Shown here: positions 43,886-45,641 of the stretch, one piece after another | Position numbering within the stretch: position 1 is the stretch's first letter | Layout: each line of letters starts with the position of its first letter | Origin: Escherichia coli | GTDB lineage: Bacteria > Pseudomonadota > Gammaproteobacteria > Enterobacterales > Enterobacteriaceae | Length of the DNA: 64,000 nucleotides | Reading direction: 5' to 3' (one strand) | Assembly: GCF_003334815.1 (NCBI RefSeq) | Contig: NZ_QOWO01000005.1 | The notes under the pieces: generated by a model | Databases searched by the model: none | Seen by the model: only the letters and a program-made list of their open reading frames with translations | What the model was told of the DNA's origin: nothing | Position numbers and translations under genes: made by a program

Positions 43886-45082
43886 ATGAAAACCTGGATA
43901 TTTATCTGTATGTCCATAGCAATGTTGCTATGGTTTTTAAGTACGCTAAGACGTAAACCCAGTCAAAAGAAAGGCTGTATTGACGCCATTATACCTGCGT
44001 ATAACGAAGGCCCGTGTCTGGCGCAGTCACTGGATAATCTACTGCGTAACCCTTATTTTTGCCGGGTAATTTGCGTTAACGACGGCTCCACGGACAATAC
44101 CGAAGCGGTCATGGCGGAAGTCAAACGCAAATGGGGCGACCGCTTTGTTGCCGTCACGCAAAAAAATACCGGTAAAGGTGGTGCGCTGATGAATGGCCTC
44201 AATTACGCCACCTGCGACCAGGTTTTTTTAAGTGATGCCGACACCTATGTTCCGCCCGATCAAGACGGAATGGGCTATATGCTGGCAGAAATTGAGCGCG
44301 GTGCCGATGCCGTAGGCGGCATTCCCTCTACTGCGTTGAAAGGCGCGGGTCTGTTACCGCACATCCGCGCGACCGTAAAGTTGCCGATGATTGTTATGAA
44401 GCGCACGCTACAGCAGCTCCTGGGTGGCGCACCGTTTATTATCAGCGGTGCCTGCGGGATGTTCCGTACTGATGTATTGCGTAAGTTCGGTTTCTCGGAT
44501 CGTACTAAAGTCGAAGACCTTGATCTCACCTGGACATTGGTGGCAAACGGCTACCGTATTCGGCAGGCGAATCGCTGCATCGTATACCCACAGGAATGCA
44601 ACAGCCCGCGTGAGGAGTGGCGTCGCTGGCGGCGTTGGATTGTGGGATACGCGGTCTGTATGCGCCTGCATAAAAGACTTTTATTTAGCCGCTTCGGTAT
44701 CTTCAGTATATTTCCTATGCTGTTGGTTGTGCTTTATGGCGTTGGGATTTATCTCACTACCTGGTTTAATGAATTCATCACCACCGGGCCGCATGGAGTG
44801 GTGTTGGCAATGTTTCCGCTTATCTGGGTCGGCGTAGTTTGTGTTATTGGTGCTTTTAGCGCCTGGTTTCATCGTTGCTGGTTGTTGGTGCCTTTAGCGC
44901 CGCTTTCCGTTGTGTATGTATTATTAGCTTATGCCATCTGGATTATTTATGGACTTATTGCCTTTTTTACTGGACGCGAACCTCAGCGCGACAAACCCAC
45001 CCGCTATTCCGCACTGGTGGAAGCGTCAACCGCTTATTCCCAACCTTCTGTCACAGGAACTGAAAAACTATCTGAAGCTTAA
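43886..45082 (+). CDS. yaiP: Family 2 glycosyltransferase with membrane domains, YaiP
   Basis: 398-aa ORF; N-terminal TM; CVNDGSTDNT, SDADT (DxD-like), EEWRRWRRW (QxxRW-like); C-terminal hydrophobic segments. Confidence 0.75.
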   Translation: MKTWIFICMSIAMLLWFLSTLRRKPSQKKGCIDAIIPAYNEGPCLAQSLDNLLRNPYFCRVICVNDGSTDNTEAVMAEVKRKWGDRFVAVTQKNTGKGGALMNGLNYATCDQVFLSDADTYVPPDQDGMGYMLAEIERGADAVGGIPSTALKGAGLLPHIRATVKLPMIVMKRTLQQLLGGAPFIISGACGMFRTDVLRKFGFSDRTKVEDLDLTWTLVANGYRIRQANRCIVYPQECNSPREEWRRWRRWIVGYAVCMRLHKRLLFSRFGIFSIFPMLLVVLYGVGIYLTTWFNEFITTGPHGVVLAMFPLIWVGVVCVIGAFSAWFHRCWLLVPLAPLSVVYVLLAYAIWIIYGLIAFFTGREPQRDKPTRYSALVEASTAYSQPSVTGTEKLSEA

Positions 45083-45641
45083 TGTTAAAGAGAAAAATAT
45101 TCAGATTGCAGACCAGGTAATTATTGATGAAACTGCAGGTGAAGTTGTTATCGGCGCGAATACCCGTATTTGTCATGGTGCCGTTATTCAGGGTCCGGTA
45201 GTGATTGGCGCAAACTGCCTGATAGGTAATTATGCGTTTATTCGTCCTGGCACAATAATCAGCAATGGCGTAAAAATTGGTTTTGCCACCGAGATTAAAA
45301 ATGCGGTTATTGAAGCGGAAGCAACGATTGGTCCGCAATGTTTTATTGCCGACTCGGTAGTTGCAAACCAGGCATATTTAGGCGCACAAGTACGTACCAG
45401 TAATCATCGTCTGGATGAACAGCCCGTGTCTGTTCGAACTCCAGAGGGAATTATCGCTACCGGATGCGATAAATTAGGTTGTTATATCGGGCAGCGTTCA
45501 CGCCTTGGCGTACAAGTTATTATTTTGCCTGGGCGAATTATTTCCCCGAACACGCAACTTGGCCCGCGCGTGATTGTAGAACGTAATTTACCTACCGGAA
45601 CTTATTCACTCCGACAAGAACTTATCCGTACAGGAGATTAA
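44931..45641 (+). CDS. yaiX: Hexapeptide-repeat (left-handed beta-helix) acyltransferase-like protein YaiX, intact; start uncertain
   Basis: Repeated [LIV]G-x-x-x-x-I hexads; frame open from 44931 but the true start may lie near 45085-45130. Confidence 0.6.
   Translation: MPSGLFMDLLPFLLDANLSATNPPAIPHWWKRQPLIPNLLSQELKNYLKLNVKEKNIQIADQVIIDETAGEVVIGANTRICHGAVIQGPVVIGANCLIGNYAFIRPGTIISNGVKIGFATEIKNAVIEAEATIGPQCFIADSVVANQAYLGAQVRTSNHRLDEQPVSVRTPEGIIATGCDKLGCYIGQRSRLGVQVIILPGRIISPNTQLGPRVIVERNLPTGTYSLRQELIRTGD

Follow-up and report, generated by a model that had tools for sequence, protein, structure and literature searches.

Organization of the yaiP/yaiX Junction

We analyzed the junction of yaiP and yaiX in a 64,000-nucleotide (nt) stretch of Escherichia coli DNA (contig NZ_QOWO01000005.1; hereafter, the window), in which yaiX, the gene of a stand-alone left-handed beta-helix (LbH) acetyltransferase, is uninterrupted and probably begins deep inside yaiP. 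Genes and codons described below lie on the + strand unless stated otherwise. The yaiP gene (43886..45082) encodes a 398-amino-acid (aa) membrane glycosyltransferase of the GT2 family (PgaC/IcaA-like; TIGR03937, E=1e-28, under the curated cut-off). A single open frame of 236 codons follows at 44931..45641 in the +1 frame relative to yaiP, the upstream limit of the open frame being 44928. As the initial annotation had reported, this frame carries hexapeptide repeats, the region is free of insertion sequences (IS), and no in-frame ATG occurs after codon 7; the only Met codons are those of residue 1 (44931) and residue 7 (44949), and the stretch shared with yaiP measures 152 nt from the former and 134 nt from the latter. 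The best-supported extent of yaiX is 44949..45641 (230 aa plus the stop codon), in which case the last 44 codons of yaiP and codons 1–44 of yaiX would be read from the same 134 nt (44949..45082), and the first ATG, in the upstream in-frame extension at 44931..44948, is probably not the conserved start. The yaiP stop codon forms TAATG, but the ATG at 45082 is out of the yaiX frame and opens only a 12-codon open reading frame (ORF; MLKRKIFRLQTR), and it was rejected as a coupled yaiX start for this reason.

Existing annotations place the start of yaiX at four positions. The curated start of MG1655 b4579 corresponds to ATG 44949 (230 aa, 134-nt overlap), and that used by KEGG and in a published study (PMC13058169) to ATG 44931 (236 aa, 152-nt overlap); KEGG and callers of the Prodigal type give 236 or 230 aa. 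The NCBI Prokaryotic Genome Annotation Pipeline (PGAP) starts yaiX at CTG 45060..45062 in strains identical to the window (193 aa, 23-nt overlap; 3361..3942 of locus L001, equivalent to window 45060..45641), and at 45117 in B2-type alleles, where this codon is GTG (174 aa; 1918..2442 of locus L028). Three large clusters of E. coli proteins, for the 230-, 193-, and 174-aa forms, contain 1737, 1845, and 1174 members, respectively.

Comparison of the Junction among Taxa

A search of a large protein collection yielded 526 YaiX homologues. Relatives at about 50% identity are 204–206 aa long and start with M/V-W-W-R-E-L, which aligns with H28-W29-W30 of the window ORF, while enterobacterial relatives annotated by other pipelines start with MDLLPFLLD, MELHHSLPD, or MDYQASLPD, all aligned with Met7. 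The Trp-Trp codons (45015..45020), identified as a conserved N-terminal motif of the YaiX family by alignments, by the junction comparison, and by the synonymous sites of yaiP, lie within yaiP, 68 nt before its end.

To define the junction in detail, 23 loci carrying the cluster were collected and the yaiP/yaiX boundary of each was dissected. They included six non-enteric loci, from Pseudomonas viridiflava, Acinetobacter, a Sphingomonas metagenome-assembled genome (MAG), an alphaproteobacterial MAG, and two unclassified Pseudomonadota MAGs. In all six, ATG or GTG directly precedes the Trp-Trp codons; the yaiP stop codon ends 11 nt past the first base of the first Trp codon, giving a 14-nt overlap (ATGTGGTGGnnnTGA). 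Most of these loci possess a Shine-Dalgarno (SD) sequence (GAGG or AAGG) supplied by an AGG arginine codon in the P-T-R-Y motif of YaiP, and the computed anti-SD pairing was about -3 to -4 kcal/mol in L017 and L019 and stronger, at -5.4 to -7.2 kcal/mol, in the remaining four loci. In L011–L014 and L017, this SD has the form acgAGGtac and is situated about 8–12 nt upstream of the start adjacent to Trp-Trp.

A different arrangement was found in fourteen enterobacterial-type loci, which comprised E. coli, E. whittamii, Citrobacter, Superficieibacter, Salmonella, Enterobacter, an Ignatzschineria MAG, and two metagenomic or unnamed contigs. The codon before Trp-Trp is CAC, TAC, CCN, CGN, GCA, CTA, or CAT in these loci, never a start codon, and the arginine of P-T-R-Y is encoded by CGN (CGC or CGT), leaving no SD before Trp-Trp. 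In 14/14, an in-frame ATG occurs 21–23 codons upstream of Trp-Trp with no intervening stop codon (44949 in the window), and it is built from the Tyr/His-Gly codons of yaiP (TAT or CAT plus GGA). At the equivalent position, only three of the six non-enteric loci have ATG, and in three of the six a stop codon lies between that position and Trp-Trp. The ATG at 44931 is confined to E. coli and E. whittamii, Citrobacter having ACT or ACG. Apparent conservation of the long form in tblastn searches, which aligned residues 1–231 in Pseudomonas and Sphingomonas, was rejected as a by-product of YaiP conservation, because the loci of these distant taxa start at Trp-Trp and often have stop codons upstream.

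Synonymous-Site Constraint in yaiP

The codons of yaiP were aligned from nine lineages, and the fraction of identical codons among sequence pairs with the same amino acid was used as the statistic. This codon identity was 0.39 in the non-overlapping 1042 nt of yaiP, where synonymous sites are near-randomized among the lineages compared, and 0.38, equal to background, at 44928–44947. It rose to 0.62 at 44948–45013 and to 0.92 at the Trp-Trp codons, which are read NTG-GTG in yaiP; reduced synonymous variation, a mark of dual coding, was thus confined to the overlap. The onset at 44948 was abrupt: the Ala, Pro, Leu, and Tyr codons just upstream vary freely, and the codons that follow, TAT/CAT GGA NTT ATT GCC TTT TTT ACT GGA (with TAT and CTT in the window), are near-invariant. 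This peak of constraint (44948..44974) reads M-D-L-L-P-F-L-L-D in the yaiX frame. The nine-codon interval at 44948 scored 0.85, the highest of 353 such intervals (mean 0.41, standard deviation 0.10) and about 4.5 standard deviations above the mean, while the best interval wholly upstream of the overlap, at the start of yaiP itself, reached 0.65. Both glycines of the block are encoded by GGA in 9/9 lineages, although GGA accounts for 0–30% of the Gly codons elsewhere in each yaiP (0/28 in the Enterobacter locus). From about 44975 to 45013, the synonymous sites of yaiP are again variable, and the YaiX residues change accordingly.

Within E. coli, 90% of the records had at most one mismatch to the window in the 134-nt overlap, compared with 76% and 77% in the 134 nt upstream and downstream, respectively. 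A divergent B2-type allele has one substitution in 44900–45059 and five in 45060–45140.

In a recoding simulation, the YaiP segment of each lineage was recoded synonymously with the codon usage of that lineage. The joint chance of an ATG, an open +1 frame, and TGG-TGG was 0.007–0.12 per lineage (0.0145 for the window), values that are not simply multiplicable since the lineages are related, and the combination was observed in 10/10 lineages. An open +1 frame alone was obtained in 9–56% of recodings per lineage, and the ATG alone, across the 10 lineages, had a P of about 0.02. Start codon and open frame have both been kept beyond chance across the lineages, as expected of a stretch that encodes two proteins.

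Initiation Signals

The only SD-like element at ATG 44949 is a GGA 6 nt upstream, with a pairing energy of -3.1 kcal/mol, which is weak in comparison with yaiS, yaiO, frmR, and frmA (-6.2 to -7.4 kcal/mol). No pairing was found at ATG 44931 (+0.9 kcal/mol) or at ATT 45006, which is preceded by a C-rich stretch (+0.4 kcal/mol). Within 45085–45130, where the initial annotation had suggested a search for SD-like sequences before candidate start codons, the in-frame ATT codons at 45099–45123 pair at -1.9 to -3.8 kcal/mol; further upstream, CTG 45060 of the PGAP model has an AGGA only 1 nt away, too close to serve as an SD. The 50-nt segments centered on 44949 (28–32% GC) had predicted folding energies of -2.0 to -2.2 kcal/mol, compared with -9.9±4.0 kcal/mol across yaiP-yaiX, and are among the least structured there. 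As a second unstructured zone surrounds the yaiP stop codon, mRNA structure supports initiation at 44949 but does not decide the matter. A consensus scan of the 3' part of yaiP revealed no promoter-like site.

Assignment of the yaiX Start

Taken together, these comparisons lead us to infer that yaiX occupies 44949..45641 and encodes 230 aa, with a true dual-coding overlap of 134 nt that arose through relocation of the start in the enterobacterial lineage; we assign this reading a probability of roughly 0.72. Its parts differ in strength. A start upstream of Trp-Trp and inside yaiP is very probable from the sequence comparisons, and a start at ATG 44949 in particular is probable, though less firmly so. 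The initial annotation had offered a choice between genes that genuinely overlap out of frame and a non-ATG start near the yaiP stop codon. The former is favored, since Trp-Trp lies within yaiP, the ATG equivalent to 44949 is present in all of the enterobacterial-type loci, and the constraint sets in at this very point; the extent proposed for the overlap, up to 150 nt from 44931, is better replaced by the 134 nt from the conserved start.

Several observations weigh against this assignment. The SD at 44949 is weak, the published study (PMC13058169) likewise remarked that yaiX lacks one, and the conservation of the upstream GGA is not independent evidence, because it derives from an invariant Trp-Ile of YaiP. 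Residues 10–22 of the 230-aa form vary freely through synonymous changes in yaiP, so that constraint in the yaiX frame is limited to the first nine codons (M-D/E-x-x-x-x-L-L/P-D) and Trp-Trp. Some enterobacterial lineages (L009, L022/23, and L026) have an ATG 2–4 codons before Trp-Trp, where E. coli has ATT. The unstructured zone at the yaiP stop codon and the relatedness of the lineages in the simulation count on the same side. A search for experimentally mapped yaiX starts found none, and the supplements of the TRAINSPOTTER N-terminomics study contain no entry for yaiX, yaiP, or b4579.

Among the alternatives, initiation at a non-ATG codon near the yaiP stop (CTG 45060, giving 193 aa; CTG 45072; or ATT 45099–45123), by reinitiation after termination of yaiP and with the upstream frame untranslated, agrees with the PGAP annotation of 45060..45641 in identical strains and of the 174-aa form in B2-type alleles with GTG at 45117. 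It is also in keeping with the unstructured yaiP-stop region, with ORF position 44 being L, V, I, or M across enterics, all potential start codons, and with Pfam and NCBIfam homology that begins only at about residue 48–53. However, initiation at CTG or ATT is very weak in E. coli, the AGGA is too near to CTG 45060, and the other candidates pair at -4.3 kcal/mol or weaker. Such a start would, moreover, remove Trp-Trp, with which the protein opens in distant homologues and whose codons enterics preserve at the synonymous sites of yaiP. The constraint from 44948, the fixation of the rare GGA codons, and the frame that is open throughout the enterobacterial-type loci would also go unexplained; we consider this start unlikely. 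Slightly less likely still is a start at the first ATG of the open frame, 44931, which would yield a 236-aa protein and a 152-nt overlap. The 236-aa form shows activity on over-expression from a plasmid (PMC13058169), but expression from the ribosome-binding site of a vector has no bearing on the native start, and this ATG, although shared by E. coli and E. whittamii, gives way to Thr-Leu in Citrobacter and other enterics, lacks SD-like pairing, and lies where yaiP synonymous identity is at background. The positional successor of the ancestral start, a near-cognate codon 2–4 codons before Trp-Trp (ATT 45006 in E. coli; about 211 aa, 77-nt overlap), is an improbable candidate. Every enterobacterial locus has ATG, ATT, ATA, or TTG there, NCBI uses this ATG in Superficieibacter (P0033, MPPRWW), and the PGAP pseudogene alignment in K-12 J53 begins at 45006. 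Yet the AT(N) is an automatic result of the conserved Tyr TAT codon of yaiP, ATT and ATA initiate very poorly, the C-rich upstream stretch provides no SD, and the constraint at 44948–44974 would be left unexplained.

Two further explanations were considered. The constraint at 44948–44974 could stem from a regulatory site, pause site, internal promoter, or other RNA or DNA element that has nothing to do with the coding of yaiX, with the open frame a by-product of YaiP; extreme conservation of YaiP in this part (FFTGREPxRDKPTRY) does give the +1 frame an appearance of conservation even where the frame is not used. This is very doubtful, however, because the constraint falls on synonymous sites, beyond what YaiP conservation explains, and begins exactly at the ATG, in coincidence with an open frame that has a 9–56% chance per lineage. 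The 3' part of yaiP showed no promoter-like site, and the non-enteric loci, with their own start at Trp-Trp, have stops in the frame in 3/6 and the ATG in only 3/6. Least probable in our estimation is a YaiP-YaiX fusion made by +1 frameshifting or transcriptional slippage, for example, at the T6 run at 44963–44968, which would tether the acetyltransferase to the membrane synthase. The +1 frame of yaiX has no stop codon over the last 51 codons of yaiP, a good SD is lacking, and the T6 run would permit re-pairing of tRNA-Phe. On the other hand, the run is interrupted in E. whittamii (TTTGTT) and missing from the Salmonella and Enterobacter forms (TTCTTT) although the architecture is kept, the ATG is conserved beyond what a fusion would need, distant relatives clearly initiate independently, and no GT2-LbH fusion was found among the best 120 of the 526 homologues. 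Each of these rivals leaves at least one comparative signature unexplained.

Under the favored start at ATG 44949, the history of the junction would be as follows. The ancestral state, as retained in other Proteobacteria, would be an ATG or GTG directly before Trp-Trp, an SD provided by the AGG codon of yaiP, and a 14-nt overlap. Start codon and SD would have been lost together in the enterobacterial lineage, and initiation would have shifted to the ATG contained in the Tyr/His-Gly codons (TAT/CAT-GGA) of yaiP, 21–23 codons upstream. In E. coli, the yaiP stop codon would also have moved downstream, giving each protein an overprinted tail. Because the weak GGA SD lies in an A/U-rich unstructured stretch, YaiX is probably expressed at a low level or only with the help of ribosomes engaged on yaiP. 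We lean, by a narrow balance, toward a reciprocal overprinting by start relocation, in which YaiX gained a leader of ~21 residues from the most conserved C-terminal motif of YaiP, YaiP gained a tail of ~20 residues from the N-terminal region of YaiX, and MDLLPFLLD came under selection. Possible roles of the leader are to hold YaiX at a fixed low ratio to YaiP or to dock it on the synthase.

With this assignment, the widespread 193-aa and 174-aa RefSeq/PGAP models are probably truncated at the N-terminus and lack the Trp-Trp segment of the family, and the 236-aa form used in the sole functional paper probably carries six extra residues. The correct ends of YaiX are needed by anyone expressing or assaying the protein, and the junction is an example of the long same-strand overlaps that annotation pipelines routinely reject. 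What is new here is the evidence for a real long overlap, its origin by start relocation from a 14-nt overlap, and the probable truncation of the PGAP models. An intact yaiX is in itself ordinary and already known, and broad concepts are unchanged, the junction being a well-behaved special case.

Intact yaiX in E. coli and Its Disruption in K-12

The initial annotation had described K-12 yaiX as a pseudogene split by IS2, and this proved correct: MG1655 b4579 is annotated in two pieces around IS2A. Alignment with the K-12 fragments, which it had called for, showed them to be 100% identical to the window, both left and right of IS2A. K-12-derived genomes match the junction query on the right side only from base 527, equivalent to window 45226, and the two K-12 flanks overlap at window 45226–45231, representing the target duplication; the insertion point (45226..45230) is uninterrupted in the window. 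Several non-K-12 chromosomes are 100% identical to the window over 44700–45900. When 5426 complete E. coli genomes were examined with the 1.2-kb junction query at a coverage of at least 80%, 4453 matched, and an annotated acetyltransferase or LbH coding sequence (CDS) was found in 36/36 full-length matches sampled along the ranking. An intact yaiX is therefore the usual condition in E. coli, and K-12 is exceptional. The 236-aa form has already been reported from many strains, with no visible SD (PMC13058169, 2026).

A further lesion of K-12 lies in yaiS. The window and K-12 differ in this gene at one position only, 43760, where the window has C and K-12 has T; the change converts CAG (Gln186) to TAG, giving a YaiS of 185 aa in K-12 compared with 223 aa here. 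The yaiP sequences are identical. Since K-12 YaiS is truncated by this TAG and yaiX is interrupted by IS2A, K-12 has two lesions in the putative four-gene operon and is a double mutant, and K-12 data are therefore uninformative on the function of this putative surface-polysaccharide system, which is carried by about 82–89% of E. coli genomes. The small K-12 gene ykiC, on the opposite strand, spans the K-12 yaiS stop codon and the downstream stretch that is yaiS coding sequence in the window.

Copies of the cluster also occur on plasmids. The 127-kb E. coli R1 plasmid pVirR1 carries the whole yaiS-yaiP-yaiX-yaiO cluster (L029, 2519..5717) at 98% identity to its chromosomal counterpart, with IS fragments at the flanks of the cluster. 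About 24–30 plasmid copies were counted in the E. coli collection, and paralogous clusters of greater divergence (about 60% identity, e.g., P0050 and P0051) are likewise annotated on E. coli plasmids.

Neighboring Genes

The gene order yaiS-yaiP-yaiX-yaiO-frmRAB in the window is the same as in K-12. Intact yaiS (43205..43876) encodes a 223-aa deacetylase of the PIG-L family and ends 10 nt before yaiP, and yaiO (45643..46416) encodes an outer-membrane beta-barrel (TIGR04390, E=1e-53, above the cut-off). The ATG of yaiO lies 1 nt past the yaiX stop codon, and its SD (GGAG) is inside the 3' end of yaiX. In Enterobacter sp. PGRG2 (L026), the yaiX homologue (3001..3726) is extended by about 30 residues at the C-terminus, and 86 nt at its end are shared with the start of yaiO (3641..4417); here the operon may contain a second long overlap, with loss of a stop codon as the probable cause.

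The four tightly packed genes yaiS-yaiP-yaiX-yaiO are probably transcribed as a single operon, for which a promoter-like site upstream of yaiS at 42956..42985 (TTGACA-18-TACAAT, 11/12) is a candidate by consensus match only. The tauA-yaiS intergenic region (42500..43250) has a GC content of 30–32% and is identical to that of K-12; it contains this one near-consensus sigma-70-like site on the + strand (42956–42985) and two on the - strand. Strain NDM4 has an IS1 upstream of yaiS, but the window is collinear with K-12 in this part and free of IS1.

The YaiX Protein and Comparison with Known Systems

YaiX carries tandem imperfect hexapeptide repeats and a predicted left-handed parallel beta-helix, the features of the hexapeptide-repeat (LbH) acyltransferase superfamily. 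Pfam searches detected Hexapep PF00132 (E=3.3e-9 and 7e-4), LbH_EIF2B (E=6e-10), and LbH_GLGC (E=1e-5). An AlphaFold2 model built on a 75-sequence alignment had a mean predicted local distance difference test score (pLDDT) of 82.7 and contained a regular beta-helix from residue 58 to about 215. Residues 1–21 of the 230-aa form had pLDDT values below 50, a low confidence that stems partly from the few sequences covering this part, and the values rose from about Trp-Trp onward (block means 65, 82, 87, 97, and so on); the leader of ~21 residues is thus predicted to be disordered. The closest solved relative is the C-terminal LbH domain of ST0452 (E=8e-23 by sequence; Foldseek E=1e-11, 34% identity), and the LbH domains of ST0452, GlmU, and LpxD were the top Foldseek matches. 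YaiX fell short of the whole-protein cut-offs of NCBIfam (129.2 vs 292.1 bits for TIGR03992, 120.3 vs 600 for NF041173, and 42.7 vs 366.9 for TIGR01173), its matches being limited to the C-terminal acetyltransferase halves of the bifunctional families (positions 233–393 of a 393-position profile), and it has no N-terminal nucleotidyltransferase (Rossmann-like) domain. On these grounds, YaiX is best described as an amino-sugar acetyltransferase-like domain outside the bifunctional GlmU-type families. The gene is intact and functional-looking, and the similarity suggests a product most like the amino-sugar-1-phosphate acetyltransferase domain of archaeal-type GlmU/ST0452. Its acyl-transferase activity has been described as untested (PMC13058169).

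The occurrence together of a deacetylase, a membrane GT2 synthase, an acetyltransferase, and an outer-membrane barrel suggests a synthase-type cell-surface polysaccharide system. A clumping phenotype that depends on YaiP was reported upon repair of the K-12 yaiX pseudogene (EcoGene 3.0, PMC3531124), and, judging from this phenotype and the gene content, synthesis or modification of a surface polysaccharide is the most likely role of the operon.

The nearest known counterpart is K-12 yaiX itself (b4579), annotated as a putative acyltransferase pseudogene at the same locus, with flanks 100% identical to the window and a curated start that maps to 44949; the window differs in having an uninterrupted yaiX and a yaiS without the K-12 nonsense mutation. 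With ST0452 of Sulfurisphaera (Sulfolobus) tokodaii and GlmU, YaiX shares the left-handed beta-helix, with 34% identity over about 185 residues to the C-terminal domain of ST0452. In contrast to these enzymes, YaiX has no nucleotidyltransferase domain, has an N-terminal Trp-Trp segment of its own, and is encoded in a synthase-type polysaccharide operon rather than serving UDP-GlcNAc synthesis. The operon resembles pgaABCD and icaADBC in its membrane GT2 synthase, deacetylase, outer-membrane beta-barrel, and tightly coupled genes, and the YaiP-dependent clumping (PMC3531124) is a further likeness. It departs from them in that YaiS is a cytoplasmic-type PIG-L deacetylase in place of a CE4 enzyme like PgaB, YaiO stands in for PgaA as the barrel, an LbH acetyltransferase is added, and YaiP scores 100 bits against a PgaC cut-off of 422.

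As in other cases of same-strand overprinting in bacteria, two proteins are encoded on one strand in two frames, with fewer synonymous changes in the shared part. Most bacterial same-strand overlaps measure 1–4 nt, and those above about 60 nt are usually annotation errors. Unlike such long overlaps, that of yaiP and yaiX is backed by comparative signatures and would be traceable to the relocation of a start codon from an ancestral overlap of 14 nt.

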